The notes beneath the pieces were generated by a model, which did not search any database, had not been told where the DNA came from, and saw only the letters and a program-made list of their open reading frames with translations. A stretch of DNA of 32,000 nucleotides from Nocardia terpenica (GTDB lineage: Bacteria; Actinomycetota; Actinomycetes; Mycobacteriales; Mycobacteriaceae). Below, one piece after another: positions 13,527 through 31,135 of the stretch. The first letter of the stretch is position 1. Every line of letters begins with the position of its first letter. Location: positions 2,100,664 through 2,132,663 of the forward strand of contig NZ_JABMCZ010000001.1 in NCBI RefSeq assembly GCF_013186535.1. Direction: 5' to 3'. Position numbers and translations under genes: made by a program.

Positions 13527-13545
13527 GTCGAGTGCGGCACATGGA

Positions 13546-13929: not shown

Positions 13930-13935
13930 GCTGTT

Positions 13936-14790
13936 TCAGTAGCCGGACTTGGCGTTGACGCGCATGGGCCAGTACCGCTCGCCGTCGGCGGGGGTGTAGT
14001 TCGGCCAGCGGGGTGGGTTGCCCTCGGGGTGGTCGCCCAGGACTGTGACGCGGCGGCCGCGGCGGGGCTCGTCGTAGTCGTTGACCGCGTAGTGCTGGGT
14101 GACGCGGTTGTCCCAGAGGGCTACCGCGCCCGGCTGCCAGCGGAACCGGCAGGTGAACTGCGGGCCCTCGGAGAATTCGACGAGATGCTGGAGCAGCGCG
14201 TCGCTTTCGGGGCGGCTCAGCTGCGGGATGTGCGAGGTGAACAGCCGGTTCACATACAGCGAGCGGCGGCCGGTCTCCGGATGCACCCGCACCAGCGGAT
14301 GTTCGGCCGAGGCCGTGTAGTCGCCCGCCGTCACCGAATGCACCGCGGTCAGGCCGTCGACCAGATCCCGCAGCGGCGCGGACAGCCGCTCGTAGACCAG
14401 ATACTGATTGGTCCACATGGTGTCGCCGCCGCGCGGCGGGCAGGTCGTCAACTGCAGGATCGACACCAGCGGCGGGCTTTCGTGAAAGGTCATGTCGGTG
14501 TGCCAGCAGTCGACCTTTCCGCCCCGGTCCGACTCGATCAGAACTATTTCGGGAAAACCCTCGAGTTTCGGCAGATAGGGATGCAACTCGACCTCGCCGA
14601 AGCGGCGGCCGAACGCGATATGCGCGGCCGGCGGCAGGTCGCCCTGATCCGGGAAGAACAGCACCTGATATTCGAGCAGCAGCTCGTGCACCGTCTCGAA
14701 TTCGGTGTCGGTCAGCGTCGCGAGATCGATACCTCGCAGCTCGGCGCCGAGAGCGCCGGAAATCGGCTGAACGGTAATGGTCGCAGGCAT
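13936..14790 (-). CDS. TauD/TfdA-family Fe(II)/2-oxoglutarate dioxygenase
   Basis: ORF track 13936..14973 (-), trimmed to ATG 14788-14790 (GGAGGGG upstream). MPATITVQPISGALGAELRGIDL start. HxD in CWHTDMTF. Distal His in VTQHYAVNDY. Confidence 0.85.
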   Translation of the reverse strand: MPATITVQPISGALGAELRGIDLATLTDTEFETVHELLLEYQVLFFPDQGDLPPAAHIAFGRRFGEVELHPYLPKLEGFPEIVLIESDRGGKVDCWHTDMTFHESPPLVSILQLTTCPPRGGDTMWTNQYLVYERLSAPLRDLVDGLTAVHSVTAGDYTASAEHPLVRVHPETGRRSLYVNRLFTSHIPQLSRPESDALLQHLVEFSEGPQFTCRFRWQPGAVALWDNRVTQHYAVNDYDEPRRGRRVTVLGDHPEGNPPRWPNYTPADGERYWPMRVNAKSGY

Positions 14791-14860
14791 CGATGACCCC
14801 TCCTGGCCGCAACGGGAAGCCGACGGCTGCCATGGTATGTCGCGGATCCGAATCGCGCAG

Positions 14861-14940
14861 CCCAACGAGCGGATAAATTTAGGATAAACAATGCTTCCGG
14901 ACAATAATTTCTGGATAACATCGAAACCGGTCATATTGCC
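14861..14940. promoter_or_regulatory. AT-rich divergent promoter region with GGATAA(A/C) direct repeats
   Basis: 14871-14930 is 22/60 G+C by hand count, in a roughly 70% GC context. GGATAAA occurs at 14871 and 14882 (11-bp spacing), GGATAAC at 14913 and GGACAATAA at 14899. A CATATT -10-like hexamer lies at 14932-14937. Confidence 0.45.
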
Positions 14941-15087
14941 CGTGATCGGTTTTCCGTGGGATGATCCCGGCATACATTCGGTACGGGGTGGAGGTCGGAC
15001 GGTCCGGCAATTCTGTCGATCATGAATTGGTGAGTTTTTCCGGTGGCGTCACGGCGAAACCGGCGGTTGATAGCGGAGGGTCCGGTG

Positions 15088-16116
15088 ATGGTGAATTCCG
15101 GAGAATGGGTCGACGACCCCGACTTGTCCATGAACACCGTGGCATTTCGCCCGGATCGGCAGCTGGTGGCGAGGGCGGCGGAGGCGGCGGCCATCGCCAA
15201 CGACTATCCGGACATGACGGCCGCGGGCGCGACCGCCGCGCTGGCCGAGCATCTCGGGCTGCCCGCCGATCATCTGGTGTTCGGGCCGGGATCGGCCGCG
15301 CTGTGCCAGCTTCTGCTGCTGGTCTGCTGCGAGCCGGGCGCGCAGGTGGTGCACCAGTGGCCGTCGTTCGAGGGCTATCCGTCGATGATCGGGCACGTGC
15401 GCGCCGACGCGGTGCCGGTCGCCCTGGACGGGGTGGACACCGATCTGGACGCGATGGCCGCAGCGGTCACCGACCGGACCGCGGTGGTCATGCTGTGCAA
15501 TCCGAACAATCCCACCGGCGCGCTGCTGGATCAGCAGCGGCTGCGGCGGTTCCTGGACCGGCTGCCCGACCACGTCACGGTGCTGATCGACGAGGCGTAC
15601 CGGGATTTCGTGCTCGACCCCGGCTACCGCGACGCGCTCGACCTGGTCCGCGAGGATCCGAGAGTGTGTGTGCTGCGCACGTTTTCGAAGTCCTACCGGC
15701 TGGCCGGGCTGCGGATCGGCTACCTCGTCGCCCAGCCCGCGCTGACCGCGCGCCTGGCCGTCCTGCGCATGTTCTTCGCGCCCAGCGCTCCGGCGCAGGC
15801 CGCCGCGGTGGCCGCCCTGGCCGGGGTCGCGGAGATGCGGCAGCGGTGCGCGCAGGTCGGCGCGGAGCGAACCCGCCTGCGGGACCTGCTGATCGAGCAG
15901 GGCTGGCAGGTTCCGGTGAGCCAGGCCAACTTTCTGTGGGTGCCCACTCCCGACGCGGGCGAATTCACCAGGCACTGCGCCGCCTACGGCCTGCGGGTGC
16001 GCGAGTGGGCCGAGCGCGGGGTGCGCGTGACGATCGGCAGTCCGGCGACCAACGACGCGTTCGCGGAGGTGGCCGCCGGATTCCGGGCCGCCGCCCGGCA
16101 GGCGGTCGCGCCGTGA
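15088..16116 (+). CDS. PLP-dependent class I/II aminotransferase (histidinol-phosphate aminotransferase-like)
   Basis: ORF track 15043..16116. Motifs LCNPNNPTG and TFSKSYRLAGLRIGY (PLP lysine). Start ATG 15088 (GGAGGG 10 nt upstream). Alternatives are GTG 15085 and GTG 15043. Confidence 0.85.
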   Translation: MVNSGEWVDDPDLSMNTVAFRPDRQLVARAAEAAAIANDYPDMTAAGATAALAEHLGLPADHLVFGPGSAALCQLLLLVCCEPGAQVVHQWPSFEGYPSMIGHVRADAVPVALDGVDTDLDAMAAAVTDRTAVVMLCNPNNPTGALLDQQRLRRFLDRLPDHVTVLIDEAYRDFVLDPGYRDALDLVREDPRVCVLRTFSKSYRLAGLRIGYLVAQPALTARLAVLRMFFAPSAPAQAAAVAALAGVAEMRQRCAQVGAERTRLRDLLIEQGWQVPVSQANFLWVPTPDAGEFTRHCAAYGLRVREWAERGVRVTIGSPATNDAFAEVAAGFRAAARQAVAP

Positions 16117-17111
16117 AACCCGGCTATATCGACTCACGCACCGAGGAATTCGATCCGGCCCCGGCGCTGCGGCACTATCTGGCCGGGACCGCCGCGGGCG
16201 ACGGCGACCGGCTCGATGCCGTGACCCGCTACGCCGTGCAGCCGCCGGGCAAGCTGGTGCGCCCGGTGCTGCTGGTGGAGTCGGCGGCGGCGGTCGGCGC
16301 GGATCCCGCCGACCTGGTGCCGATCGCGGTGGCGCTGGAGTACCTGCACGTGGCCACCCTGGTGCACGACGACATCATCGACGGCGATCTGCTGCGCCGC
16401 GGCCGCCCCACCGTGCACGCCCGCTACGGCCGCGACGAGGCCATCGTGGCCGGGGATGCGTTGCTGCTGGACACCTTTCGCACGCTGACCGAGGCCGCGG
16501 AGCTCGGGTTCCCCCCGGCCGCGGTGCTGGAGGCGGTGCGCATCGTCGCGGTCGCGGGACTGGATCTGTGCCGGGGGCAGGCGATGGAGGCGGGCCTGGC
16601 CGGTGACCTGTACTGCGGGATGGCCCGCTACCGCACCATGGCCGGGCTGAAGACCGGTGCGCTGTTCATCGCGGCGTGCGCGGCGGGCGCGGTGCTCGGC
16701 GGCGGCAGCGGCGAGGAGGTCCGCGCGCTGCGCTCGTTCGCCGACCATCTCGGCTGCGCCTTCCAGATGCGCGACGATCTGCTGCCGTATCTGGCCGACA
16801 CCAGCCGGGCGGGCAAGAGCTCGGTCACCGACATCGTCAATCAGCGGCCGACGTTCCCGGTGCTGGTCGGCATCGAACTGGCCGACACGACGCAGTGCTG
16901 GCGCATCGAGCAGTCGCTGAGTGGGCGGCTGCCCGCCGACGAGGCGCACCGGCTGCTGCGGCAGGTGCTCACCGAGACCGGCGCGCTGGCCGAGGCGTCG
17001 GCGCGGGTGGCGGCCGAGGTGGCCGCGGCGCGTGCGGATCTCGCGCCGTTCGGTGTGCGCGGGGAGCGGCTGATCGCCTTGGCGGACAGCATGATCGGGC
17101 GCACGTGGTGA
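16113..17111 (+). CDS. trans-Polyprenyl diphosphate synthase (GGPP synthase-like) with atypical second Asp-rich motif
   Basis: GTG 16113 overlaps the upstream stop (GTGA) and is in frame with ORF 14961..17111. First motif LVHDDIIDGDLLRRGRPT. Second motif reads FQMRDDLLPY (DDLLP rather than DDxxD). Confidence 0.85.
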   Translation: MKPGYIDSRTEEFDPAPALRHYLAGTAAGDGDRLDAVTRYAVQPPGKLVRPVLLVESAAAVGADPADLVPIAVALEYLHVATLVHDDIIDGDLLRRGRPTVHARYGRDEAIVAGDALLLDTFRTLTEAAELGFPPAAVLEAVRIVAVAGLDLCRGQAMEAGLAGDLYCGMARYRTMAGLKTGALFIAACAAGAVLGGGSGEEVRALRSFADHLGCAFQMRDDLLPYLADTSRAGKSSVTDIVNQRPTFPVLVGIELADTTQCWRIEQSLSGRLPADEAHRLLRQVLTETGALAEASARVAAEVAAARADLAPFGVRGERLIALADSMIGRTW

Positions 17112-18076
17112 GCGCGCGCACCCGGCGGCACTGGTGGGCGCACGTGGAGACCTGCCGCCCCTACACCCTGGCCTATCCCGGCCTGGCGGGCCTGGCGGGC
17201 GCGGCCCTGGGCGGGCATCCCGCACCCGCGCAATGGATGACGGCGTGGCTGGCGCCGACGCTGGTGTGGGCCGCGGGCCTGTACCTGGGTGACTACCTCG
17301 ACCGCGAGTTGGACGCGGGCAGCAAACCGCACCGGCCGATCCCGTCGGGGCGGCTGCGCCCGGGGACCGCGGTGGCGGTGGGCGCGGGCTGCGTGGCGGT
17401 CGCGCTGGCGGTGACGGCGCTGGTCCAGGCGTGGGCGGTCGCGGTGGCGGTGCTGGGCGCGGTCGGCGTGGTGGTCTACAGCAAGGTGCTCAAGCCGCGC
17501 GGCATCTTCGGCAATCTGGCGCGCGGGCTGCTGACCGGCCTGGTGCTGCTGTTCGCGGCGACCGTGGTGGACGGCCATCCGGTCGCGCTCGCCTGGGCGT
17601 GGGCGTGCGTGTTCCTGGTGCAGGACACCGCGTCGAATCTGGTCGGCACCGTGCGCGATACCGCCGGGGATCGGGCGGGCGGGTACCGCACGCTGCCGGT
17701 GGTGATCGGCGCGCGGGCCGCGAGCTGGTGTGCGGCAGCGCTTTTCGCCGCCGCCATGGCGGCGGCCGTGGCGCTGGCGGTCATCGGCGGGCTGGGTGCG
17801 GTGGGCGGCGGGCTGGTGCTCGCGGCCGTCTGCCTGGGCCTGGCCGGGTACCGGGTGCTGCTCGGCGGCGACCCGGCCGATCCGCGGCGGGCGCTGCGCA
17901 CCCACGAGATCCTGATCGCCGAGCGGCTGGTGCTGGCCGCCGCGGTCGCCTCCGGCGGCCTCGGGGCGCCGGTCGCGGTCGTGATTCTGGTTGCGGCGCT
18001 GGCGATCTCCCTGTCCACGCAGGCGCTGCTGCGGCGCCGGCACGAATTCGGCGATATCCCTGTGAGGTCGGCATGA
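17108..18076 (+). CDS. UbiA-superfamily membrane prenyltransferase
   Basis: GTG 17108 overlaps the upstream stop (GTGA) and is in frame with ORF 16676..18076. Asp-rich motifs LGDYLDRELDAGSKPHRPIPSG and VRDTAGDRAGGYRTLPV. Multi-pass hydrophobic. Confidence 0.85.
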   Translation: MSARTRRHWWAHVETCRPYTLAYPGLAGLAGAALGGHPAPAQWMTAWLAPTLVWAAGLYLGDYLDRELDAGSKPHRPIPSGRLRPGTAVAVGAGCVAVALAVTALVQAWAVAVAVLGAVGVVVYSKVLKPRGIFGNLARGLLTGLVLLFAATVVDGHPVALAWAWACVFLVQDTASNLVGTVRDTAGDRAGGYRTLPVVIGARAASWCAAALFAAAMAAAVALAVIGGLGAVGGGLVLAAVCLGLAGYRVLLGGDPADPRRALRTHEILIAERLVLAAAVASGGLGAPVAVVILVAALAISLSTQALLRRRHEFGDIPVRSA

Positions 18077-19743
18077 CCACCCGCACGATCGATACCGCGC
18101 TCGAGACCGGTGCGGAGGCCGTGCTGCGCCACCGCGCCGCCGACGGGCTGTTCGACTACGACTCCGGGGTCGGCGCGACGCTGGCCACCGCGGGCGCGAC
18201 TCTCGTTCTGCACCTGCACGATCCGGTCGGCTCCCGCGCGTATGTGACGGGCGGGGTCGCGCACCTGAGCCGGACACAGAACGGCGACGGCGGCTGGGGT
18301 TCGGTGCCCGGCCAGCCCACCGAGGCGGTCACCACCGCCATCGCGGCCGCCGTGCTGCACCTGGTGGACGCCGACGGCAGCGGCGACCGCGTGCGGGCCG
18401 GGCGGGCCGCGCTGGACCGGCTCGGCGGGCTGTCCGGCATCGCCGACCCCGCGCTGTCGGCGGTGTGCCACCGTTTTCACGCCATGGCCGGGTGGGCGCC
18501 GCCCGCGCCGGTTCGGGTGCCGCTGTGGGTGTTCGCGCTGCCGCGGCTGCGGCGCACCCGGATGTCGTTCCGGTCCGGGGTGCTGGCCGCCACCGCGCTC
18601 GCCCAGGCGCGCGCCGAACCCGGCGGGCTGCTGCGCCGCCTGATCGACCACGCCGCCACCCCCGCCGCGCTGCGGGTGCTGTACGGCATCCATCGCGACG
18701 AGGGCGGCACCGGCGCGTTCGGCGCCGACGCCTGGGCGGCCGGGATGACCGGGTTGGGGCTCGTACGCTCCGGCGCCGCACCGGATCTCACCGAGGCCAT
18801 CGCGGACTTCCTGCGCCGCAGCGTCTTCGCCGACGGCTCCTGGACGATCGTCGAAATCCGGCTCACCTACACCGGTTTCGCGGCCACCGGCCTGTGCGAT
18901 GCGGGCTACGGGGCCGATCCGCGGCTGGCGGTGACCGCCGACGGCGTGCGCGCCGCGCAGCTGACCCGGCCGTTCACCATGCTGGACTGCCCGCCCGGCG
19001 GCTGGAGCTACTCCGGGCCCGACGGCTGGCCGGTCACCCTGGAATCGGCGGAACTGCTGTCGGCGCTGGCGAAAATGCCGGGCGCGGACCGCGATCCGCA
19101 CGTGGCGCGGGGCGCGCGCTGGCTGGCCGGGCGGCAGGACACCCGCGGCTCGTGGAGCCTGTGGGTGCGCGACACCGCCCTCGCCAACGACGGCCCGTGC
19201 CCGTACCTGACCGCGCAGGCCGTCGACGCGCTGCTGGACGCCGGAATCCCACCCGAGGACAACGGGATTCGGCGCGCGGCGCGCTGGCTGGCCGGGGTGC
19301 AGCGGCCCGACGGCTCGTTCGAATCGCTGTGGTACCGCGGCCACACCGCCGGGACCGCGCAGGTGATCGGCGCGCTGGCGCGGATCACCGACCCGGCCAC
19401 CGACCCCACCGTGCGCGGCGGCGTGCGCTGGCTGCTGGCGACCCAGCACTCGGACGGATCGTGGGGTCCCGGCGACGGCCGGGCGGGCTCGGTGGAGGAG
19501 ACCGCGTGGGCGCTGCGCGCCCTGCTCGAGGCCGGAATCGCCCCCGGCACAGCCGAAATCGACCGCGCCGCGGACTGGCTGCTGGCCCGGCAGCAACCCG
19601 ACGGGCACTGGCCCGAGGCGCCGGTCAGCGCCTACATCCGGCACTGCGTGCACTACCCCAACGGCGCGATCACCGCGGGCCTGGCCCTGCGCGCGCTGGC
19701 CGCCTATCGCCGCGGCCTCGGCAGGAAGGACGACGATGGCTAG
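18073..19743 (+). CDS. Class II terpene cyclase of the squalene-hopene / oxidosqualene cyclase fold (556 aa)
   Basis: ATG 18073 overlaps the upstream stop (ATGA). Several QW-type repeats are present (QNGDGGWG, RQDTRGSW, QRPDGSF, QHSDGSWG, QQPDGHW). The GGWSYS...WPVTLESAE block lines up by eye with SHC GGFAFQ...YPDVDDTA and OSC GGFSFS...VSDCTAE. Confidence 0.85.
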   Translation: MTTRTIDTALETGAEAVLRHRAADGLFDYDSGVGATLATAGATLVLHLHDPVGSRAYVTGGVAHLSRTQNGDGGWGSVPGQPTEAVTTAIAAAVLHLVDADGSGDRVRAGRAALDRLGGLSGIADPALSAVCHRFHAMAGWAPPAPVRVPLWVFALPRLRRTRMSFRSGVLAATALAQARAEPGGLLRRLIDHAATPAALRVLYGIHRDEGGTGAFGADAWAAGMTGLGLVRSGAAPDLTEAIADFLRRSVFADGSWTIVEIRLTYTGFAATGLCDAGYGADPRLAVTADGVRAAQLTRPFTMLDCPPGGWSYSGPDGWPVTLESAELLSALAKMPGADRDPHVARGARWLAGRQDTRGSWSLWVRDTALANDGPCPYLTAQAVDALLDAGIPPEDNGIRRAARWLAGVQRPDGSFESLWYRGHTAGTAQVIGALARITDPATDPTVRGGVRWLLATQHSDGSWGPGDGRAGSVEETAWALRALLEAGIAPGTAEIDRAADWLLARQQPDGHWPEAPVSAYIRHCVHYPNGAITAGLALRALAAYRRGLGRKDDDG

Positions 19744-21004
19744 TGGAACCGACGCCGACGCCGTGGTGTGCGGCGCGGGAGCGGGCGGCCTGGCCGCGGC
19801 CTGCGCGCTCGCGGCGGCCGGGCTGGCGGTGATCGTCCTGGACAAACAGCGACAGCCGCCGTCGATCGCGAAGGGTGAACTGCTGCAACCGGGTTCGCTC
19901 ACCGCGCTGGATCGGTGGGGAGTGACTCGACGGCTGCTGGCGGCGGGCGGCGTGGAGATCGACCGGCTGTGCGCCCGCGCGAGCGACGGGCGGGCACTGC
20001 TGGAACTGGACTATCCGGGGCTGCTCGGCGGCCGCCGACGGATCCTGTCCGCCGACTACCCGACGATTCTCGCCGCCCTGGCCGACAGCCTGCCGCCGGG
20101 CGTGCGGGTGCATCGCGGCGTGCCGGTGCGCGGGCCGCTGCACGACGACACCGGACGGGTGTGCGGAGTCGAGGTGGCCGACGAGCGGCTCGGCAGCGTG
20201 CGCGCGCCGCTGGTGGTGGCCGCCGACGGCGCGGCCTCCGGACTGCGCGCGGCGGCGGGGATCGCCGTCGCCCGCACCCAGTATCCGCACCGGCTGGTGT
20301 CGTTCGACGTGCCCGGCGCCCGGGACGAGGAATTGACCGCCTACGTCACCGATCGCGGTCTGCGCCTGGTGTATCCGCTGCCGCACGCGCGCACCCGGCT
20401 CTACATCCAGGCCGGTCCGCAGGAGCTGCGCGGCCGCGACGACGCGGCCATGCGGCGCTGGGCGGTCGAGGCGACCGCCGGGATCGCGGCCCTGGCCCCG
20501 CTCGCCGAGCTGCTGCTCGATCCGCGCACCCAGCGCCAATTGTTCTCCGTGCCACGGTATCTGGTGGACCGGCTGGCGCTGCCCGGCCTGGCGCTGGTGG
20601 GCGAGTCCGCGCACGCGGTGCATCCGATGGCCGCGCAGGGCATGAACTCCGCCATCGCCGACGCGGCCGAGCTGGCCGACCGGATCACCGCGGTGGGCGC
20701 GGCGGACCCGGCCGCCCTCGATCGGGCGCTGACCGACTACGAGCGGGTCCGGCTGCCGCAGCTGCGGCACGTGGCCACCGTGAGCCACAATGCTTCGCGC
20801 ATGCTCACCGCGGTCTCGCCGGTGGGGCGCCGGCTCGGGCGGCGGCTGCTGCGCGGCACGGCGAACAATCCGCGGCTGCTGGCGGCGACCTGCCGCAATA
20901 TCGCCGGGGTGAACCCCGCCCCGCTGGGCATGGTCGACCGGCTCTACCAATTGGGCCTGCTGCCCGCCCAGCGTGGCCGCGACATCGAGGAGGCGATGTG
21001 CTGA
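19736..21004 (+). CDS. FAD-dependent monooxygenase (epoxidase / UbiH-type)
   Basis: ORF track 19736..21004. Contains VVCGAGAGGLAAA (GxGxxG), DGAASGLR, and GESAHAVHPMAAQGMN. Overlaps the cyclase gene by 8 nt. Confidence 0.85.
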   Translation: MASGTDADAVVCGAGAGGLAAACALAAAGLAVIVLDKQRQPPSIAKGELLQPGSLTALDRWGVTRRLLAAGGVEIDRLCARASDGRALLELDYPGLLGGRRRILSADYPTILAALADSLPPGVRVHRGVPVRGPLHDDTGRVCGVEVADERLGSVRAPLVVAADGAASGLRAAAGIAVARTQYPHRLVSFDVPGARDEELTAYVTDRGLRLVYPLPHARTRLYIQAGPQELRGRDDAAMRRWAVEATAGIAALAPLAELLLDPRTQRQLFSVPRYLVDRLALPGLALVGESAHAVHPMAAQGMNSAIADAAELADRITAVGAADPAALDRALTDYERVRLPQLRHVATVSHNASRMLTAVSPVGRRLGRRLLRGTANNPRLLAATCRNIAGVNPAPLGMVDRLYQLGLLPAQRGRDIEEAMC

Positions 21005-22206
21005 CCGAAGAGCACGCCTGGCGGCTGCCGGTGGTGCGCGACGGCGCGTACGACCTGCCCGCCGTCTGCCGGTCCATGCAGCAGGCCGGGCCGATCGTGC
21101 CCGCCCGCACCCCGAACGGGAAGACGGTGTGGGTGGTGACCCGGCACGCGGAAGTCCGCCGGGTGCTGGCGGATTCGCGGACCACCGCCGATCGCGCGCA
21201 CCCGAACTTCCCGTCGTTCGAGCAGTCCGCGGACGCGCCGGTGCTGATCTCCGGGCCGAATCCGTTTCTGGTGTCGATGGATCCGCCCGCGCACACCCGG
21301 GCGCGCGGCGATCTGAAGCGGGAGTTCGAGGAGCGGCGCATCCGCGACTACGCGCCGGTGGTGGAGAAGATCATCGCCGAGGCCGTGGGGCAGCTGCGGG
21401 CCGGGCCGCGGCCGGTGGATCTGGTGGCGGAGTTCGCGCTGCGGGTGCCGTCGCGGGTCATCTGTGAACTGCTCGGCGTGCCGTATGCCGACCACGACTT
21501 CTTCGAATCCCGCACGCCCGCACTGATCGACAACACCGTCACGCCCGAACAGGGCCGGGCCGCGTTCGGCGAGATCCACGAGTACCTCACCGGGCTGGTC
21601 GCCGCGCAGGAGGCCGATCCCGGTGACGACATCATCGGCAACTATGTGCGCGCGACCCGCGAACGCGGCGACTACCGGCGCGAAGCCCTGGTGTCGCATG
21701 CGTTCCTGCTGCTGATCGCGGGGCACGAGACCACCGCGAATCAGATCGCGCTGAGCGCGCTGGCCCTGATGCAGCGCCCGGAGCTGCGCGAGCATCTCGA
21801 CGGCGACCCCGTCCGGATGGCGAGCGCGGTGGACGAGATGCTGCGGTATTTCACCATCGTGGACACCGTGTCGCGGGTGGCCACCGCCGATATCGAGATC
21901 GGCGGGGTCACCATTCGCGCCGGGGACGGGATCGTGGCCCTGTGCACGATCGCCAACCGCGACCCCGACGTGTATGCCGACCCCGACGAGCTGGATCTCA
22001 CCCGTGGCAGCCGCAGGCACCTGGCCTTCGGCTTCGGCCCGCACCAGTGCCTCGGCCAGGGCCTGGCCCGCCTGGAACTGGAACTGGCCCTGCGCACCCT
22101 GGTCACCGAGCTGCCGGGCATGCGGCTGGCGGTTCCGGCGACGGAATTGGAATTCAAGGGCACCACTTCGGCTTTCGGGGTTCGTCGGCTTCCGGTGACG
22201 TGGTAG
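20998..22206 (+). CDS. Cytochrome P450
   Basis: GTG 20998 (GAGGAGG 5 nt upstream) is in frame with ORF 19915..22206. I-helix AGHETT, EMLRY (ExxR), heme loop FGFGPHQCLGQGLA. Confidence 0.9.
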   Translation: MLTEEHAWRLPVVRDGAYDLPAVCRSMQQAGPIVPARTPNGKTVWVVTRHAEVRRVLADSRTTADRAHPNFPSFEQSADAPVLISGPNPFLVSMDPPAHTRARGDLKREFEERRIRDYAPVVEKIIAEAVGQLRAGPRPVDLVAEFALRVPSRVICELLGVPYADHDFFESRTPALIDNTVTPEQGRAAFGEIHEYLTGLVAAQEADPGDDIIGNYVRATRERGDYRREALVSHAFLLLIAGHETTANQIALSALALMQRPELREHLDGDPVRMASAVDEMLRYFTIVDTVSRVATADIEIGGVTIRAGDGIVALCTIANRDPDVYADPDELDLTRGSRRHLAFGFGPHQCLGQGLARLELELALRTLVTELPGMRLAVPATELEFKGTTSAFGVRRLPVTW

Positions 22207-22207
22207 G

Positions 22208-22390: not shown

Positions 22391-22412
22391 CGGAAGTGAA
22401 GGGACTGCTGTG

Positions 22413-24047: not shown

Positions 24048-24999
24048 TTACGAGAATGCCGCGACGGCGGTGACCGGGCGGCGCGCCCTGGCCGTCGTGG
24101 AATTCGGCGCCGAGGAGGGCCCCGCGGAGCTGCGCGACGGCGTCCCGGTGGTCCGGATCCGCGCCGCCGCAACCGAATCCGCGGGTTTCCGCGAGGTGTG
24201 GATCACCGACGGCGACGCGCGGACCGGCCACACCGACGGCCTGGTCTACGCGCACGACGACGATATCCTGTTCTGCGCCGGGCACATTCGGCACGGCGAC
24301 CGGTACGCGGCACACACCCGCGAGCGGTACGCGGCCGCCTTCGGCCTCGCCGACGCGCTCGGCTACCCCACGCTGGTCCGGATGTGGAACTACGTCGGCG
24401 ACATCAACGCGGCCAATGCCGACGGCCTGGAGATCTACCGCGACTTCTGCCTGGGACGGGCGGAAGCCTTTGCCGCACACGGGAAGGCGATGCCCGCCGC
24501 GACCGGTGTCGGCACGCACGGCAGCGGCGTGGTCTTCTACTTCCTGAGCTGCCGGTCCGGCGGCGTCACCCACATCGAGAACCCGCGCCAGATCCCGGCC
24601 TACCGGTATCCGCGCCGCTACGGTCCGAAGGCGCCGACCTTCGCGCGGGCGACCCACCTGCTGCCCGACGGCGGCAGCGACACCCTGTTCGTCTCGGGCA
24701 CCGCCGCGATCCTCGGGCACGAGACGGTGTGCCCGGGCGATGTGGCGCGGCAGTGCGAGGTGGCGCTCGCCAATATCCGGGAACTGGTCGGCGAGCAGAA
24801 TCTGGGCCGGTACGGGATCGCCAAACCCTATGGGCTGTCGGCGATTCGGCGCGCCAAGGTGTACGTCCGCCACCGCGAGCACCTGGAGGTGGTGCGCCGG
24901 GCCTGCGCCGCCGCGCTGCCGCCGGAGGCCGAGATCGCGTACCTGGTCGTCGACATCTGCCGCAGGGACCTGCTGGTCGAGATCGAGGCCGTGGCATGA
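23998..24999 (+). CDS. FkbO/Hyg5-family chorismatase (hydroxybenzoate or dihydroxycyclohexadiene-carboxylate synthase)
   Basis: ORF track 23998..24999. Family blocks LVRMWNYVGDINA and EIYRDFCLGRAEAF, with a RidA-like C-terminal half. Start uncertain (ATG 23998, ATG 24007 or GTG 24016). Overlaps the adenylase 3' end by 30-50 nt. Confidence 0.8.
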   Translation: MRRMVFVRAVRSALSCDYENAATAVTGRRALAVVEFGAEEGPAELRDGVPVVRIRAAATESAGFREVWITDGDARTGHTDGLVYAHDDDILFCAGHIRHGDRYAAHTRERYAAAFGLADALGYPTLVRMWNYVGDINAANADGLEIYRDFCLGRAEAFAAHGKAMPAATGVGTHGSGVVFYFLSCRSGGVTHIENPRQIPAYRYPRRYGPKAPTFARATHLLPDGGSDTLFVSGTAAILGHETVCPGDVARQCEVALANIRELVGEQNLGRYGIAKPYGLSAIRRAKVYVRHREHLEVVRRACAAALPPEAEIAYLVVDICRRDLLVEIEAVA

Positions 25000-25012
25000 G
25001 GGACGAAAAGTG

Positions 25013-26251
25013 ATGGAGCAGACGATAATTCGGCCACTGTCCCCGTCGGAGCGACGGTTCGTGTCCAGCGGTGTCTTCGGCTACTGGACCGTCCCGGTGA
25101 CGGGGGACTTCGATCCGGACGCGATGCGGGCGGCGTTCACCGCCCTCCAGCACGCCTACCCGGTCCTGGGCTGCCGGATCGTCACCCTCGAGGACGGCGA
25201 TCGGCTGGTGCGGCCCACCGAGTTTCCCGCCGAGGGCGCCTGGGTGCGCGCCGGTGATCCGGAACCGGTGCGGGCCCCGGCCGGATTCACCGATCCGGAT
25301 CGGCAACTGGCGTACCTGGATATCGTGTGCGGCCGGGACGGGGCGCGGGTCACGCTGTTCGTGCATCACAGCATCGCCGACGCCCGCCACGACATGGAAC
25401 TGTTCGCGCGGCTGTGGGACCTGTACGCGGGCCATCCGGCCTCGGTCGCCGATCTGCCTGCGCCGCAGGACTATCCGCAGTCGCTGGAGTGGCACGTGAC
25501 CACGCGCGGCATCGAGCGCGGGCCCCGCTCGGGTCTGGAACCGGTCTACCGGCCCATGCCCGACGAGCCGGAGACCGTCGGCGAGATCCCCTACCGCAAT
25601 ATCCTGGCCCGCCCCGACCGCCTGATCCTCGACGCCGAGATCACCACCGGCATAGTCGAATCCGGCCGCCGCACCGGGCTGTCGGTCAACAGCCTGGTCA
25701 GCGCCGCCCTGCTGCGCGCCTACGCCACCGTGGCGTCGACGGACGGCAGCCCGGTGCCGGTGGGCGTGTTGGCGGCGGTGGATCTGCGGTCGCGGCTGCT
25801 GCCCGCGGTGTCGGCGACCGGCGGCACCACCATGTCGACCTTCGCCTGCTTCGACGCCGAGATCGAAACCGCCACCGCCGCCACCGATCTCGCCCGCCGC
25901 ATCGGCGACCGGTTGCGCACCGACCTGGACAGCGGCGTGGTCGCCCAGTCGGTGCTGCACTTCCCGGATCTGTTCGGCGACACCCGCAAACACAGTCTGG
26001 CCGGGCACATCTCGCTCACCAATCTGGGCGCGATCCCCGCGCTGCGCACGCCCGCCGGGCTGACGGTCACCGACTACGAGACCGGATTCCACCTCGCCCA
26101 CCCGCGCCCCTCGGCCGCCGATTCCCCGGCCGCGCTGCTGCAGGTCTACACCTACGCCGGGCGCATGACCATCGGCTACGTCGGCGACCACCTCGGCACC
26201 GACGCCGTCCTCGATGCCATCCGCGCCGAACTGACGGAGGTGAGCCGATGA
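25013..26251 (+). CDS. Stand-alone condensation-domain-like acyltransferase (HHxxxD, PapA5/NRPS C-domain superfamily)
   Basis: ATG 25013 (GAGGGA 9 nt upstream) is in frame with ORF 24740..26251. Catalytic motif FVHHSIADARH. About 410 aa, with no adjacent A or T domains. Confidence 0.75.
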   Translation: MEQTIIRPLSPSERRFVSSGVFGYWTVPVTGDFDPDAMRAAFTALQHAYPVLGCRIVTLEDGDRLVRPTEFPAEGAWVRAGDPEPVRAPAGFTDPDRQLAYLDIVCGRDGARVTLFVHHSIADARHDMELFARLWDLYAGHPASVADLPAPQDYPQSLEWHVTTRGIERGPRSGLEPVYRPMPDEPETVGEIPYRNILARPDRLILDAEITTGIVESGRRTGLSVNSLVSAALLRAYATVASTDGSPVPVGVLAAVDLRSRLLPAVSATGGTTMSTFACFDAEIETATAATDLARRIGDRLRTDLDSGVVAQSVLHFPDLFGDTRKHSLAGHISLTNLGAIPALRTPAGLTVTDYETGFHLAHPRPSAADSPAALLQVYTYAGRMTIGYVGDHLGTDAVLDAIRAELTEVSR

Positions 26252-27177
26252 CCGGCCCGGCCTTCGGCGTGGTGATCGTCACCTGGAATCCCACGCCCGG
26301 CAATGTCGAGCACGCGATATCGCTGGCGCGGCGCGGCATCCAGGTGTGCGTGGTCGACAACACCCCCGTGCCCCAACCCTGGTACGCGCGCCTCACCGAC
26401 GCGGGAATCACGGTGCTGCACAACGGGAACGAGGGCGGCCTCGGCGGCGGCTTCAACCGCGGCATCGACCTGCTCGCCGGGCGCGGCGCCGAGGTCTTCT
26501 TCCTGTTCGACCAGGACTCCGAACCCGGCGACGACTACTTCGACGCCATGCTCGCCACACCCCGGCCCGAAGGGTCGGCCCCGCTGCTGGCCGGTCCGGT
26601 GATCTACGACCGCGGCACCGGCATATTCCTGCTCGGCAACGAGGTGGTCGACGCCGACACCATTGCCGCGCACGCGAAGAACGGCCCGCTGGAGGCGCCC
26701 TTCGTGATCTCGTCGGGCACCATGATCACCCGGGACGCGTGGCAGGCCATGGGCCCGTTCGACGAGCGCTACATCATCGACTACCTGGACTGGGACCTGT
26801 GCCTGCGCGCGACCCGGCGCGGCGTGCGCGTCGTGGTGAATACCGGTGTGGTGCTGCGGCACAGCGTCGGCGCGTTCGAGATCCGGTCGCTGCTCGGCAG
26901 ATCCATGCTGGCCTTCCACTATCCGCCGTTCCGGCGCTACTACACCGCCCGCAACTGCGTGCACTTCACCACCCGCAATGCCCGCCACCGGGCCGAGTTG
27001 CTGCGGCTCAATGCCCACCTGATCTCGAACGTGCTGTCCATCGGCCTGTTCGAGCGCGACCGGACGAGCAAGCTGCTCGCCCTGGCCGCCGGGGTCGTCG
27101 ACGGTGCGCTCGGCCGCCTCGGCCATTTCACCGATACCCGGCCCCACCTGGCCGCGCTGGTCGCGCGGTCGCGATGA
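26248..27177 (+). CDS. Family 2 (GT-A fold) glycosyltransferase, rhamnosyltransferase/WbbL-like
   Basis: ATG 26248 overlaps the upstream stop (ATGA). Blocks FGVVIVTWNP, CVVDNTP, NEGGLGGGFNRGI, FLFDQDSEP (DxD) and SSGTMITRDAWQAMGPFDERYIIDYLDWDLCLR. Confidence 0.8.
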   Translation: MTGPAFGVVIVTWNPTPGNVEHAISLARRGIQVCVVDNTPVPQPWYARLTDAGITVLHNGNEGGLGGGFNRGIDLLAGRGAEVFFLFDQDSEPGDDYFDAMLATPRPEGSAPLLAGPVIYDRGTGIFLLGNEVVDADTIAAHAKNGPLEAPFVISSGTMITRDAWQAMGPFDERYIIDYLDWDLCLRATRRGVRVVVNTGVVLRHSVGAFEIRSLLGRSMLAFHYPPFRRYYTARNCVHFTTRNARHRAELLRLNAHLISNVLSIGLFERDRTSKLLALAAGVVDGALGRLGHFTDTRPHLAALVARSR

Positions 27178-28220
27178 CAACCCATCCCCGAGCGAGGAGT
27201 GTGCAGATGCCCGACGTGGCAACCGATCCCGACGCGATCCTGGCCCGGCTCACCGACGTGGCCACGCCCTACGCGGTGCGCGCCGCGGTCACCCTCGGCG
27301 TGCCGGAGCTGCTCGCCGACGGCCCGGCGTCGCTGGGCGAGCTGGCGGCGGCCACCGGCGTCGACGCCGACACGCTGGGCCGACTGCTGCGGTACCTGGT
27401 GGCGCACGGCCTGTTCGGCGAGCCCGAACCGCAGCGCTACGCCCTCACCGACGTCTCGCGCGGCCTGATCGGCGAGGCGGGCGCCGCGCGGCGCGCCTGG
27501 ATGGACCTGTCCGGCCCCGGTGCGCGCATGGACGCCGCCTACGGCGGCCTGGCGCACGCGCTGCGCACCGGCGGCGACGGCTACAGCGCGGTGCACGGCC
27601 GCCCGCTGTGGGAGGACCTGGCCGACAAACCGCGGCTGCGTGCCGAATTCGACACCCTCATGGGCACCGACACCGCCACCGTGGCGCACCTGGTGGCCAC
27701 CGAGTACGACTGGACCGGCATCGAGCACGTGATCGACGTCGGCGGCGGCGCGGGCATCCTGCTCACCGAGATCCTGCGTGCCCGGCCGAGCATGCGCGGC
27801 ACGGTCGTGGATCTGCCGCGCGCGGTCGACACCGCGCGGCAGCGGTTCGCCGCCGCCGGGCTCGGCGCCCGCGCCGACGCGATCGGCGGCAGCTTCTTCG
27901 AGCCGCTGCCCGCCGGCGCCGACGCCTACATCGTGTCCCGCGTGCTGACCGATTGGAACGACCAAGCGGCGCACGACATTCTGCGCAACTGCGTGGCGGC
28001 CGCCCGGCCCGGCGGCCGGGTGCTGATCGTGGAGGTGCTGCCCGACGACAGCGTGCTCGCCCCCGATTCGCCCTACGACCTACAGATGCTCGCCGTGGTC
28101 GGCGGGCGGCTGCGCGACGCCGACCAGTTCACCGCCCTCGCCGCCCGCGCCGGTGCGACGGTGGCCGGGGTGCGGCGCTGGGACGGCGGGCTCACCGTCA
28201 TCGACTGCCGCCCGCGCTGA
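27174..28220 (+). CDS. Class I SAM-dependent O-methyltransferase (Methyltransf_2 type with N-terminal dimerisation/wHTH domain)
   Basis: ATG 27174 overlaps the upstream stop (ATGA); ATG 27207 is an alternative. SAM motif VIDVGGGAGILL. The YIVSRVLTDWND segment is typical of natural-product OMTs. Confidence 0.85.
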   Translation: MTTHPRARSVQMPDVATDPDAILARLTDVATPYAVRAAVTLGVPELLADGPASLGELAAATGVDADTLGRLLRYLVAHGLFGEPEPQRYALTDVSRGLIGEAGAARRAWMDLSGPGARMDAAYGGLAHALRTGGDGYSAVHGRPLWEDLADKPRLRAEFDTLMGTDTATVAHLVATEYDWTGIEHVIDVGGGAGILLTEILRARPSMRGTVVDLPRAVDTARQRFAAAGLGARADAIGGSFFEPLPAGADAYIVSRVLTDWNDQAAHDILRNCVAAARPGGRVLIVEVLPDDSVLAPDSPYDLQMLAVVGGRLRDADQFTALAARAGATVAGVRRWDGGLTVIDCRPR

Positions 28221-28221
28221 G

Positions 28222-30081
28222 CTATCCGGAACACTGCGTGCACGGCAGGATCACCGGGCTCGGCGCCCCGATGAACCCGGTCGGGCGGCGCATCGCGGCC
28301 GATGCGTCGGAATCCGGTCTGCTGCGGGCGAATACCCGCACCAGATCGTGGAAGCGGTAGCGCCCGGGCGCCGGGCTGTCCAGCATGCCGCGATCGACCA
28401 GGGCGTCGCACAGGCGCACCGCCTCGCCCGGATCGCAGCCGAGCGCGGCCGCGACCGCCGCCACGGTCGCGTCCGGGCGGTCCAGCCGGGCCAGCGTCCG
28501 AAACGCGTGCGCCAGTTCGGGATCCAGCTGGTCGTAGGCCGATTGGAAGGCGCTCTCCAGCGAGGTGTCGCGAAACCGGAACTGCTGCAGGCCGTCCCGC
28601 TCGGCGCCCAGCCGGTCGGCCTCGTCGGCGATCATCCAGCCCGGCCGGGTCACCAGGCGCGCGGCGATGATCCGGATCGCCAGCGGCAGGCCGCCGCACA
28701 GGACGACGACGCGGCGCACCGCCTGCGGTTCCGCGGCCGGGCGGGCGTCGGCGACGATCCGGGTGAACAGCTCGGCGGCCTCGGCGGGCTCCATCGGCGC
28801 CAGCCGCACCCGCCGCGCCACCGGCAGCGCCGTCATCGGCGTGCGGGCCGTGACCAGCACCGCGCATCCGGCCGACGCGGGCAGCAGCGGCGTCACCTGT
28901 TCGGTGCAGATGGCGTTGTCGAGCAGCACCAGCAGGCGTTTGCCGCGGGCGACGGTCCGAAACAGGGCCGACCGCTCCGCGCCGCCCGCCGGGATCTCGG
29001 CCTCGGCGACACCCAGGGCGCGCAGGAAACCCGCCAGCACCTCGGCCACATCGGGCGGCCCGTCGGCGGGCCGCAGATCGACGTACAGGCGGCCGTCGGG
29101 AAACCGGTCCTGCACCCGATGCCCGACATGCACCGCCAGCGCCGTCTTGCCCACCCCGCCCATGCCGGTGAGGGCCACCACCGAGACCGCGCGGCCCGGG
29201 GCGAGCGCCGCGGTCACCTGCGCGAGTTCGGCGGTGCGGCCGGTGAAGTCGATGGTGTCCGGCGGCAACTGCGACGGCACCGGCCGCGCCGGAGCCGACA
29301 CCGCGGCCGGGGCGAGGGCGCCACCGCCCACCGTCTCGCCGCTCAGGATGTGTTGGTGCAGTTCGGTCATGGCGGGACTGGGCTCCAAACCCATGGTGTC
29401 GATGAACCAGTCGCGCGCGGCCCGGTAGACCTCGAGGGCGTCGATGCGCCGCCCGGCCCGAAACAGCGCCGTCATCAACAGGATTCGCCACTGCTCGGAC
29501 TGCGGCTCGGCATGCACCAGGGCCTCCAGCTGCGCGATCGCCGCCTCGTGATTGCCCTGATCGATGGAGATCTCGATGGCCCAGCGGCGCAGCGTCTCTC
29601 GCGAGCGATGCAGCCGCGCCCGCTCACCCGCCGCCCACGGCCCCGGAACCCCGGACAGCGCCTCCCCGCGCCATAATCGCAGCCCGGCGCGGATGCTGTC
29701 GGCGGCCAGATCCAGCCGCCCGGACGCGCGGGCGGCCTCGGCGGAGACCAGGAATCGCTCCACCGCGGCGGCGTCGATCTCCAGCGTCGCGTCGAACCGG
29801 TAGCCGCCGCCCGCCCAGCGCAGCGCGTCCTGCCTGCACCCGTGATGGCGGAGCATCGTTCGCAGCGACGACATGTAGTTGCGCAGCGCGCTCAGCGCGG
29901 ACGGCGGACTGCCCTCGCCCCAGATGCCGCCGATGAGATCGGCGATCGGGACGGTGCGGCCGCTGTTGGCCGCCATCATGGCGAACACCGCCTGCTGCTT
30001 GGGCTGATGCAGGCCGTCCAGCCGCACGCGATCGACCAGCACCTCCAACGGACCGAGCAGCCCCAGCCGAACCAGTGACAT
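28222..30081 (-). CDS. SARP/AfsR-family regulator: OmpR-type winged helix + BTAD + NB-ARC ATPase
   Basis: ORF track 28222..30129 (-), trimmed to ATG 30079-30081 (GGAGGT 3 nt upstream). The 16-codon extension has only 5 of 15 G/C-ending codons. Start LGLLGPLEV. A BTAD region follows. Walker A GMGGVGKT and Walker B LLVLLDNA are present. Confidence 0.85.
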   Translation of the reverse strand: MSLVRLGLLGPLEVLVDRVRLDGLHQPKQQAVFAMMAANSGRTVPIADLIGGIWGEGSPPSALSALRNYMSSLRTMLRHHGCRQDALRWAGGGYRFDATLEIDAAAVERFLVSAEAARASGRLDLAADSIRAGLRLWRGEALSGVPGPWAAGERARLHRSRETLRRWAIEISIDQGNHEAAIAQLEALVHAEPQSEQWRILLMTALFRAGRRIDALEVYRAARDWFIDTMGLEPSPAMTELHQHILSGETVGGGALAPAAVSAPARPVPSQLPPDTIDFTGRTAELAQVTAALAPGRAVSVVALTGMGGVGKTALAVHVGHRVQDRFPDGRLYVDLRPADGPPDVAEVLAGFLRALGVAEAEIPAGGAERSALFRTVARGKRLLVLLDNAICTEQVTPLLPASAGCAVLVTARTPMTALPVARRVRLAPMEPAEAAELFTRIVADARPAAEPQAVRRVVVLCGGLPLAIRIIAARLVTRPGWMIADEADRLGAERDGLQQFRFRDTSLESAFQSAYDQLDPELAHAFRTLARLDRPDATVAAVAAALGCDPGEAVRLCDALVDRGMLDSPAPGRYRFHDLVRVFARSRPDSDASAAMRRPTGFIGAPSPVILPCTQCSG

Positions 30082-30101
30082 ATAACCTCCCGGATCGAAA
30101 A

Positions 30102-30124
30102 CTGGTGCACCAGAAGGCTTCTGG
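30102..30124. promoter_or_regulatory. Two overlapping perfect palindromes, CTGGTGCACCAG (30102-30113) and CCAGAAGGCTTCTGG (30110-30124), upstream of the SARP gene
   Basis: Direct reading. They lie 21-43 nt upstream of the SARP ATG, just 5' of its Shine-Dalgarno sequence. They share the CCAG/CTGG arm, so as RNA the two hairpins would be mutually exclusive. Confidence 0.4.
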
Positions 30125-30223
30125 ATCATCAGACTCCCCCGGGTGTGGATAGTCAGTATGTCAAACGATCTCTGTCCGGGATGGTCCTCGGCATAAATTT
30201 TGGGTAATACCCTGATAATCCGG

Positions 30224-31135
30224 TCACGGCAGCGGCAGGCCGTCGATGGCGTCGCGCAGGCAGGCGGCCAGATCGTCGACCGCGTCGGTGATCAGGCCGG
30301 GCAGCCGGGCCAGCAGCACCCGCCGGGTCACCGGCGCGCCCTCGACGACGCGCACCACCCGCACCGTATCCGGGACCAGCGCCAGCAGGTACGGGGGCAG
30401 CGTGGTGACCCCGTACCCGGCGGCGACCAGCGACAGCTTCGACAGCCAATCCCGGGTCTGATGGCCGATGATCGGGCGCTGGGGGAGCGCGGGCCAGACG
30501 CCGATGCCGTGCTCGCCGGTGGTGTGCGGGCCGGAGACCCAGGTCGCGGTCTGCAGGTCGTCGAGGCCGACGGTGCCGTCGCGGCCCAGGCGGCTGTCGG
30601 CGGGCACGGCCACCAGCAGTTCGCCCTCGAGCAGCACGTCCAGTTCCAGCGGCGGGTCCTGGTCGTCGGGCGCCGGGTAGGGCGGGCGCGCGGAGATCAC
30701 GGCCAGGTCCAGGGTGCCCGCGCGCAGGCTGCGGGTGAGCGCGGCGGTCGAACCCTCCCGGGTGACGACGTCGACGTCCGGGCGGCGGCGGCGCATCAGC
30801 GTCAGGGTCTCCGGCAGCACCGCCGCGCCGATGCTGGTGAACACCCCGACACGCACCGTGCCGCCGCCGGGTTCGATGCCGTGCAGGGCGCGCTCGGCCC
30901 GGTCCAGATCGTCGAGCGCGGCCGAGGCGTGCCGCAGCAGCGTGGCCCCGGCCGCGGTGAGGGTCGCCCCGCCGCTGCGCCGCTCGAACAGCGGCGTGCC
31001 CGCCGCGTGTTCGAGCACGGCCATCTGCCGCGACACCGCCGACTGGGTATAGCCGAGCGCTCCCGCGGCGGCGGTGAACGACCCCAGCTCCGCAATCGCC
31101 CGCAGCACCCGCAGCGCGGTCGAGGACCACTCCAT
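30224..31135 (-). CDS. LysR-family transcriptional regulator
   Basis: ORF track 30224..31210 (-), trimmed to MEWSSTALRVLRAIAELGSFTAAAGALGYTQSAVSRQMAVLE (ATG 31133-31135), the canonical LysR HTH N-terminus. A substrate-binding domain follows. Confidence 0.85.
   Translation of the reverse strand: MEWSSTALRVLRAIAELGSFTAAAGALGYTQSAVSRQMAVLEHAAGTPLFERRSGGATLTAAGATLLRHASAALDDLDRAERALHGIEPGGGTVRVGVFTSIGAAVLPETLTLMRRRRPDVDVVTREGSTAALTRSLRAGTLDLAVISARPPYPAPDDQDPPLELDVLLEGELLVAVPADSRLGRDGTVGLDDLQTATWVSGPHTTGEHGIGVWPALPQRPIIGHQTRDWLSKLSLVAAGYGVTTLPPYLLALVPDTVRVVRVVEGAPVTRRVLLARLPGLITDAVDDLAACLRDAIDGLPLP

Follow-up and report, generated by a model that had tools for sequence, protein, structure and literature searches.

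The stretch of DNA analysed here (the window: 32,000 nucleotides of Nocardia terpenica, contig NZ_JABMCZ010000001.1, positions 2,100,664 to 2,132,663) carries, in its interval 13936-31135, what is almost certainly the gene cluster for brasilicardin A biosynthesis in N. terpenica IFM 0406, bra0-bra12 together with lysRNt. This cluster was reportedly first described, as bra1-bra11, by the Dairi laboratory. The window has a G+C content of about 70%, and raw lists of its open reading frames (ORFs) are full of shadow frames. On a third-position GC frame plot, a minus-strand gene was seen at about 13951-14640, followed by an unbroken plus-strand run (15181-28230) and by minus-strand genes at 28291-30000 and 30301-31140. 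The frame plot, Pfam, the assembly gene calls and the locus tags confirmed the published order, in which bra0 is divergent, bra1-bra11 are co-directional, bra12 is convergent and lysRNt comes next. The same layout had been proposed in an initial annotation made from the sequence alone (a TauD gene on the minus strand, divergent from eleven plus-strand genes, then convergent SARP and LysR genes), and it was borne out by third-position GC and Pfam. Pfam also returned all of the families named there, the GT2 domain and the Trans_reg_C domain of the SARP scoring below the gathering score. Start codons were corrected on the basis of published primers, ribosome-binding sites and the assembly gene calls.

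The first gene, bra0 (AWN90_RS33405; 13936..14790, minus strand), encodes an Fe/2-oxoglutarate dioxygenase of the TauD/TfdA family (284 residues, TauD E-value 1.6e-64 to 3e-64), which is exactly KZM73522.1 and shows HTD (HxD motif) at residue 97. Its start codon is not at 14973: the ATG at 14790 follows an AGGAGG and abuts primer doxgn500_rev (14791-14807). The divergent bra0-bra1 control region (14791..15087), bounded by the bra0p/bra1p primers, is about 300 base pairs long and not about 70. The next eleven genes all lie on the plus strand. With its ATG at 15088, bra1 (15088..16116) encodes a class I/II pyridoxal phosphate-dependent aminotransferase of 342 residues (Aminotran_1_2 E-value 4e-48), identical to QKQ14790.1 and UniRef100_B1Q2P1. 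It is followed by bra2 (16113..17111), which specifies a trans-polyprenyl (geranylgeranyl) diphosphate synthase (332 residues, polyprenyl_synt E-value 9e-58, DDIID at residue 86), and by bra3 (17108..18076), the product of which is a UbiA-family prenyltransferase identical to QKQ14792.1 (322 residues, UbiA E-value 1.7e-34) with the Asp-rich motifs DYLDRELD at 62 and DTAGD at 184.

The product of bra4 (18073..19743) is a meroterpenoid cyclase of a non-canonical class II type that resembles oxidosqualene cyclases (556 residues, SQHop_cyclase_C/N). Bra4 is exactly KZM73520.1, shares a 90% cluster with BAG16278.1 ('diterpene cyclase') and contains three QW-like repeats. DxDD was not found anywhere in Bra4, and VTLESAE at 321-327 fits xxx(E/D)(T/S)xE, the cyclase motif defined as taking the place of DxDDTxx (PMC11600129). 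Two oxidative enzymes complete this half of the block: a flavin adenine dinucleotide (FAD)-dependent monooxygenase, predicted to be a terminal-alkene epoxidase (bra5, 19736..21004; 422 residues, FAD_binding_3 and squalene epoxidase (SE) domains, GAGAGG (GxGxxG) at residue 13), and a cytochrome P450 (bra6, 20998..22206; 402 residues, p450) with the heme loop FGFGPHQCLG at 344, EMLR at 280 and AGHET at 241.

After an intergenic gap, bra7 (22410..24047) encodes a DhbE/EntE-type aryl acid adenylating enzyme (AMP-binding E-value 1.6e-74, and AMP-binding_C). It starts either at GTG 22410 (545 residues, assembly gene call) or at ATG 22446 (533 residues, the MT247069/BAG16281 version), the shorter form being identical to QKQ14797.1/BAG16281.1 ('Bra7'). 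The product of bra8 (24016..24999, start GTG 24016 in the assembly) is a Hyg5-type chorismatase of 327 residues (FkbO_Hyg5-like_N E-value 5e-38). Its nearest solved relatives are 5AG3/5A3K, at 337 bits, against 271 bits for FkbO (4BPS); VDICR of Bra8 aligns with VDVCR, and the Cys that differs between 5AG3 and 5A3K is kept. We take these two entries to be structures of Hyg5, and the functional meaning of the Cys is likewise presumed. The gene bra9 (25013..26251) encodes a PapA5-like acyltransferase (412 residues, PapA_C E-value 6.5e-55, identical to QKQ14798.1), and the stand-alone HHxxxD enzyme of the initial annotation was found again here as HHSIAD at residue 118. A GT2-family glycosyltransferase, the predicted L-rhamnosyltransferase (309 residues), is encoded by bra10 (26248..27177); its GT2 Pfam match is weak, the protein is exactly KZM73515.1 and it clusters with BAG16284.1, 'putative dTDP-rhamnosyl transferase'. 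The last plus-strand gene, bra11 (27174..28220), encodes an S-adenosylmethionine-dependent O-methyltransferase (Methyltransf_2 E-value 1.9e-43, and Dimerisation) with VIDVGGG at 186, and may start at ATG 27174 (348 residues) or at ATG 27207 (337 residues, assembly gene call).

Many of these genes overlap. The seven coupling sites listed by the initial annotation are all present: GTGA at 16113-16116 and 17108-17111, ATGA at 18073-18076, 26248-26251 and 27174-27177, the 8-nucleotide (nt) overlap ATGGCTAG of bra4 and bra5 at 19736-19743 and the 7-nt overlap GTGCTGA of bra5 and bra6 at 20998-21004. The ATGA at 27174-27177 is real sequence but may not be the bra11 start in use, as the assembly call is at 27207. 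The genes bra2-bra5 (polyprenyl synthase, UbiA, cyclase and flavin epoxidase) are translationally coupled in one operon.

The two regulatory genes lie on the minus strand. The product of bra12 (AWN90_RS33345; 28222..30081, start ATG 30081) is a SARP/AfsR-type activator of 619 residues, identical to WP_067591004.1, with BTAD (E-value 1e-33), NB-ARC (E-value 2e-15), Trans_reg_C (winged helix-turn-helix) below the gathering score and a Walker A motif GMGGVGKT at 306; the bra12 cloning primers match exactly at 30062-30081 and 28225-28244. The adjacent lysRNt (AWN90_RS33340; 30224..31135) encodes a LysR-type regulator of 303 residues (HTH_1 and LysR_substrate) identical to KZM73512.1.

The identity of the locus was established by sequence comparison with strain IFM 0406. 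The whole window (1-32000) was aligned to positions 2,709,573-2,756,491 of KV411304.1 (GCA_001625105.1, N. terpenica IFM 0406), and no substitution was found; the two differ solely in three tandem arrays, by gaps that each span a whole number of units. The matching range on KV411304.1 falls within the coordinates given for fosmid bcaAB01 (PMC7837296). In addition, 22 primers designed on N. terpenica IFM 0406 (Table S2 of PMC12185567) were compared with the window: 16 are exact matches and another 3 differ from it by one indel. The matching primers sit where they are expected, in bra12 and sdpR, at the bra0, bra1, bra12 and sdpR promoter fragments and at the 33470 promoter. Since kstR and ompR are located just beyond the window, their cloning primers find no match in it, and primer kstRp_fw2 gave only a poor match there.

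The protein comparison led to the same result. Nine of the ten window proteins compared are identical to N. terpenica database entries, and Bra1, Bra3, Bra7 and Bra9 correspond to records of the bra cluster deposits (QKQ14790.1, QKQ14792.1, QKQ14797.1/BAG16281.1 and QKQ14798.1; the cluster itself is deposited as GenBank MT247069 and occupies 2,712,512-2,752,696 of KV411304.1). The tenth, Bra8, has no exact match because an alternative start codon was used for the query. The locus tags run from bra12 (AWN90_RS33345) through bra0 (AWN90_RS33405) in line with the gene order (RNA-seq table, PMC12185567 supplement 2). The absence of substitutions, the primers, the proteins and the locus-tag order together indicate that the window is the reference cluster itself: gene order, orientation, proteins, primer sites and operator motifs are all alike, and only array copy number differs. 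The locus identity, gene content, catalytic motifs and published operator motifs were thus observed directly, and nothing contradicts the assignment. From the gene order, the initial annotation had named the brasilicardin cluster of N. terpenica IFM 0406 and supposed that the pathway was probably already described. DNA identity, primers and proteins, three independent tests, agree with the former, and publications already exist on the cluster, on its expression in heterologous hosts and on the regulators Bra12, LysRNt and SdpR. The cluster has been studied experimentally and its finding is not new.

The cluster directs brasilicardin production, as demonstrated by heterologous expression (PMC8251711, PMC7837296). 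The published roles attribute the core to bra1-bra6, the methoxy group to bra0 and bra11, synthesis and attachment of 3-hydroxybenzoate to bra7-bra9 and L-rhamnose to bra10, with the sugar supply and the N-acetylglucosamine (GlcNAc) transferase encoded outside the cluster (PMC7837296). The product that the initial annotation had deduced from the parts list, an epoxide-cyclised diterpenoid bearing an amino-acid function, a methoxy group, a sugar and a hydroxybenzoyl ester, fits these assignments, in which the amino acid forms the tail and the ester is a 3-hydroxybenzoyl one.

In the proposed pathway, Bra2 would provide geranylgeranyl diphosphate, and the UbiA enzyme Bra3, by analogy with PlaT3 (PMC11317874), would act first on the prenyl diphosphate, before the epoxidase and then the cyclase. 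The flavin epoxidase Bra5 would oxidise the terminal alkene; Bra4, with an ESxE acid motif and not DxDD, would then protonate the epoxide to form the perhydrophenanthrene core with its C-3 hydroxyl. This early order (UbiA, epoxidase, cyclase) has been shown for phenalinolactone and atolypene (PMC11317874, PMC11600129), and the sequence of prenylation, epoxidation and cyclisation is proposed by analogy, not proven, for brasilicardin. The alpha-keto acid tail would be converted to the alpha-amino acid through transamination by Bra1, a role put forward in PMC11317874, and the P450 Bra6 would hydroxylate the core. Bra0 is predicted to hydroxylate the side chain and Bra11 to O-methylate it afterwards, giving the methoxy group. 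Bra10 would attach L-rhamnose, the Hyg5-type chorismatase Bra8 would convert chorismate to 3-hydroxybenzoate, Bra7 would adenylate the latter and Bra9 would presumably transfer the 3-hydroxybenzoyl group onto the rhamnose. The exact site of the P450 reaction and the route of the Bra7 adenylate to Bra9 are what we infer in this scheme.

The genes for rhamnose and GlcNAc supply and the GlcNAc transferase would reside elsewhere in the genome. Indeed, as the initial annotation had remarked, the window contains a single glycosyltransferase gene (bra10) and no sugar-nucleotide genes according to Pfam analysis of the cluster and its flanking genes, and the flanking genes are unrelated. In heterologous hosts, brasilicardins C, D, E, F and G are obtained, and a thymidine diphosphate (TDP)-rhamnose cassette is needed for glycosylation; the cluster borders were redefined in the same work and the rhamnose dependence was demonstrated (PMC8251711). 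Cluster borders, the requirement for bra0 and bra12, rhamnose dependence and regulator binding are thus established in the literature.

The GlcNAc step has no assigned gene in the cluster, and amino-sugar-type genes lie near it, an association by proximity alone: BcrAD_BadFG, SIS and NagA-like amidohydrolase genes, a typical amino-sugar handling set, are found to the right of the window, about 8-10 kb beyond lysRNt on KV411304.1.

Several points weigh against this reading of the locus and its pathway. Three tandem arrays of the window exceed those of the draft assembly by 46, 161 and 24 nt, so that the two are not identical byte for byte; the window therefore derives from another assembly or subculture of the same strain. 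Bra3, Bra4 and Bra5 themselves lack in vitro data (PMC11317874). No GxDS aryl carrier protein motif was detected in the six frames of the 32-kb window, which leaves Bra7 and Bra9 without a carrier protein partner there. Finally, brasilicardin A itself was never made in heterologous hosts (PMC8251711), which means that the cluster alone is insufficient for the final product.

It could be supposed that the window contains a brasilicardin-like cluster belonging to another strain or another species, with new congeners as possible products. Other N. terpenica strains, for example GCA_015476995.1, do hold the cluster at about 98-99% DNA identity, a different species, Nocardia sp. NPDC052566, holds a reduced version at 66-78% protein identity, and the lengths of the tandem arrays differ between the window and the draft assembly. 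However, the window shows no substitution over 32 kb relative to IFM 0406, against more than 200 substitutions over about 21 kb for the next strain, GCA_015476995.1, and its proteins are identical to the IFM 0406 entries. This alternative is very improbable and is effectively refuted. A scan of a genome collection with Bra4 gave no self match, the best match (71%) being in Nocardia sp. NPDC052566; the idea of a diverged cluster that it raised was ruled out by the primers, the proteins and the contigs.

The relatives of the cluster fit the wider meroterpenoid family pictured in PMC11600129. By tblastn, Nocardia sp. NPDC052566 (contig positions about 5957-14000) contains homologues of bra0-bra5 (66-78% identity), and the gene immediately after them is a homologue of bra11. 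Within 10 kb of this reduced cluster, neither a P450 gene nor the hydroxybenzoate cassette, a glycosyltransferase gene or a SARP gene was found. It may make a methoxylated aglycone-type compound. An Allokutzneria contig carries bra1-bra5 at 48-57% identity, and Actinomadura and Streptomyces loci share, at 40-63% identity, the core made up of dioxygenase, UbiA, cyclase and epoxidase.

The phenalinolactone cluster of Streptomyces (pla, PlaT1-PlaT4) resembles bra in its geranylgeranyl diphosphate synthase, in a UbiA enzyme acting first, in its flavin epoxidase and in its epoxide-opening, oxidosqualene-cyclase-like class II cyclase (PMC11317874). In phenalinolactone, however, the alpha-keto acid tail is kept and leads to a tetronic acid, the core is anti/anti/syn and the tailoring is different, whereas bra includes an aminotransferase of its own, leads to an anti/syn/anti core and carries the 3-hydroxybenzoyl-rhamnose cassette. 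The atolypene cluster (ato, AtoE) likewise combines an aminotransferase, UbiA, an epoxidase, a P450 and a cyclase with xxxE(T/S)xE, and in vitro work has shown that cyclisation in this pathway follows prenylation and epoxidation; Bra4 was placed in a separate, Nocardia-only clade (clade IV) (PMC11600129). Unlike bra, the atolypene pathway employs a C25 (geranylfarnesyl) donor and lacks tailoring with a sugar or hydroxybenzoate. That the window contains another perhydrophenanthrene meroterpenoid pathway of the phenalinolactone, tiancilactone or atolypene type, merely resembling bra by the common four-gene core (polyprenyl synthase, UbiA prenyltransferase, flavin epoxidase, non-canonical cyclase) that the Streptomyces and Actinomadura loci also hold, is refuted by the sequence and is the least probable explanation of all, given the complete identity to the bra reference and a tailoring set which is that of bra (Hyg5 chorismatase, adenylase, PapA-type acyltransferase, GT2, dioxygenase and O-methyltransferase).

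The locus being that of brasilicardin, little is at stake in the cluster itself, which has already been cloned, given new borders, brought to expression in other hosts, engineered for gram-per-litre titres of intermediates and dissected for its regulation; it is no longer a candidate for novelty. The repeat arrays and the sigma factor pair beside bra0, both described below, are the only items worth passing on.

As to regulation, the bra genes are grouped into the sub-operons bra1-6 and bra7-11, with bra0 divergent; they are activated by the SARP Bra12 and modulated by LysRNt and SdpR. In published work, Bra12 is an activator essential for production and LysRNt a negative regulator (PMC7837296, PMC12185567). 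LysRNt binds upstream of bra0-1, bra7 and bra12 (PMC7837296), while SdpR binds bra0-1, bra12 and its own promoter, and Bra12 binding is also reported (PMC12185567); the bra0-bra1 control region is thereby bound by Bra12, SdpR and LysRNt (PMC7837296, PMC12185567). Transcription of the bra genes is low but real and steps up at bra7 (PMC12185567 supplement 2). In the window, the LysRNt motif TKCTGGAWMA has 6 occurrences where 0.06 would be expected: one of them is inside bra1 and the others lie in the upstream regions of bra0-1, bra7 and bra12, and an M1-type box TTCTGGATAA is found at 14909-14918, within the bra0-bra1 control region. With respect to the published 15-nt Bra12 box, no 12-15-mer common to the promoter regions of bra0-1 and bra12 was detected. 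A simple promoter and terminator scan of the bra6-bra7 gap gave nothing, such a scan being uninformative for actinomycete promoters.

Outside the interval considered by the initial annotation, sdpR (11754..12092, minus strand) encodes an ArsR/SmtB-type regulator of 112 residues (HTH_5 E-value 6e-16) and is matched exactly by four published primers. Between sdpR and bra0 lies a divergent pair of genes for an extracytoplasmic function (ECF) sigma factor (12144-12710, minus strand) and a zf-HC2 anti-sigma factor (12795-13526, plus strand), which directly adjoins bra0. The terms ECF and anti-sigma are absent from PMC12185567 and the pair is not among the regulators tested there. It is a regulator candidate of possible use to brasilicardin researchers.

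The second subject is a family of repeats in and around the cluster. Tandem Repeats Finder (TRF) detected five intergenic arrays in the window, with a period of 23 or 24 nt: 5064-5183 (5.2 copies), 10169-10272 (4.5 copies), 13557-13919 (15.8 copies), 22228-22386 (4.9 to 6.6 copies) and 31207-31251 (2 copies). A conserved hairpin head, GGCCAAAAGCAYGCCGG, which contains an inverted repeat, has 5 copies in the window where 0.1 would be expected; four of the arrays begin with it, as does a remnant of two units at about 2400-2445. These elements are located in 2400-2461, 10169-10279, 13543-13919, 22207-22409 and 31207-31263. The units that follow the head are 21-24 nt long and one-sided: each re-copies the 3' half of the head (core AGCAYGCCGGRA) and continues with a half that is specific to the locus. 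Three heads begin about 2-20 nt past the stop codon of the co-directional gene that precedes them (bra6, the anti-sigma gene and a phosphoenolpyruvate (PEP)-mutase-like gene), and the intergenic gaps that bound the transcription units of the cluster hold the head. Over about 47 kb of N. terpenica, 7 copies were counted, including one inverted doublet between der and kstR.

Two of these elements belong to the cluster. In the bra6-bra7 intergenic region (22207..22409, plus strand), the head GGCCAAAAGCATGCCGG occupies 22212-22228, starting no more than about 2 nt from the bra6 stop, and is followed by a 24-nt array. The left-border element (13543..13919, plus strand) fills the gap between the stop codons of the anti-sigma gene and of bra0; it consists of a head at 13550-13566 and a 23-nt array of about 16 units at 13557-13919 (TRF score 418-506), with higher-order periods of 46 and 69. 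The 23-nt array at 5064-5183, with the unit GCCGACGTCCAGATTGTGGACGG, takes up all of the space between an esterase gene and an alcohol dehydrogenase gene that converge on it; it is without the hairpin head of the family, yet its period is alike and its length is variable.

When the units were aligned cyclically, only those of 13557 and 31207 were significantly similar (16 of 23 positions), the other pairs falling within the range of shuffled sequences. As whole-unit similarity is mostly within shuffles, the kinship of the arrays rests on the common head and core. RNA folding relative to shuffles gave a z score of 0.17 for the bra6-bra7 array and of -4.15 for the array at 13527-13935, and these unequal values therefore make no consistent case for a structured RNA. 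An Rfam search of the whole window at gathering thresholds returned nothing. Literature searches found nothing relevant on the hairpin DNA or on peptides that it would encode and nothing specific on tandem repeats of Nocardia, and the words 'repeat' and 'tandem' are absent from both regulator papers (PMC7837296, PMC12185567). A blastn search of a plasmid collection with the 34-nt hairpin gave one weak Nocardia match in addition to chance matches.

The repeat element may be undescribed. It looks like an element of the repetitive extragenic palindromic (REP) type with an unusual one-sided tandem tail. It shares with REP/BIME hairpins and mycobacterial MIRU-VNTR, and presumably also with the dRS3/NIME repeats of Neisseria, a short, intergenic hairpin that is also found in inverted doublets, and a strain-variable copy number. 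Unlike these systems, the arrays consist of a single head and a one-sided 21-24-nt tandem array which re-copies the 3' half of the hairpin, with a variable half-unit at each locus.

The hairpin was also searched for in metagenome contigs with the 19-nt head as query, and at least 126 matches were obtained. Among the matches listed, to which all figures of this paragraph refer, 85 of 126 have the head set inside a longer frame, TGGATTCCGGCCAAAAGCATGCCGGAATGACGG, the outer stem pairs of which covary (ATT/AAT 51, ATC/GAT 23, ACC/GGT 4 and GTT/AAC 3). The contigs with the hairpin span 26% to 70% GC, and short tandem re-copies were seen only where the GC content was 65% or higher (strict pattern: 8 of 50). 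These high-GC contigs have many copies each; inverted doublets are frequent among them, and 2-3 tandem re-copies occur in some cases.

Array length varies between the genomes of N. terpenica. Compared with the IFM 0406 draft, the window has two more units at 5064-5109, seven more at 13672-13832 and one more at 22228-22251. In the other strain, GCA_015476995.1, the arrays differ again, by about -2, +2 and -3 units. The left-border array is 7 units shorter in the IFM 0406 draft and about 3 units shorter in GCA_015476995.1. Either the arrays are variable-number repeats or they were collapsed in the draft assembly.

The difference at 22228-22251 concerns the LysRNt operators of bra7. The M1 box forms the core of the 24-nt repeat unit upstream of bra7, and three such boxes, TGCTGGAACA, are found in the window at 22248, 22272 and 22296 (22248-22305), against two in the draft, which has one unit fewer. 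The published description mentions 'two exact copies' of the M1 box upstream of bra7, as in the draft genome (PMC7837296). The draft genome behind the published electrophoretic mobility shift assays (EMSA) thus has two boxes and the window three, and constructs and strains may differ, unnoticed, in operator number upstream of bra7. A wider proposal would be that the array supplies the M1 operators of LysRNt, that its copy number tunes bra7-bra11 and that it grows by hairpin-directed duplication and not by plain slippage; taken as a whole, we consider this unlikely.

A further minor feature was noticed in the left part of the window, where a small ORF (2542-2618, plus strand) in the divergent gap between a permease gene and an amidohydrolase gene encodes a hydrophobic peptide of 25 residues, MWIIAVISVISAAVIAYGFKISFPE.

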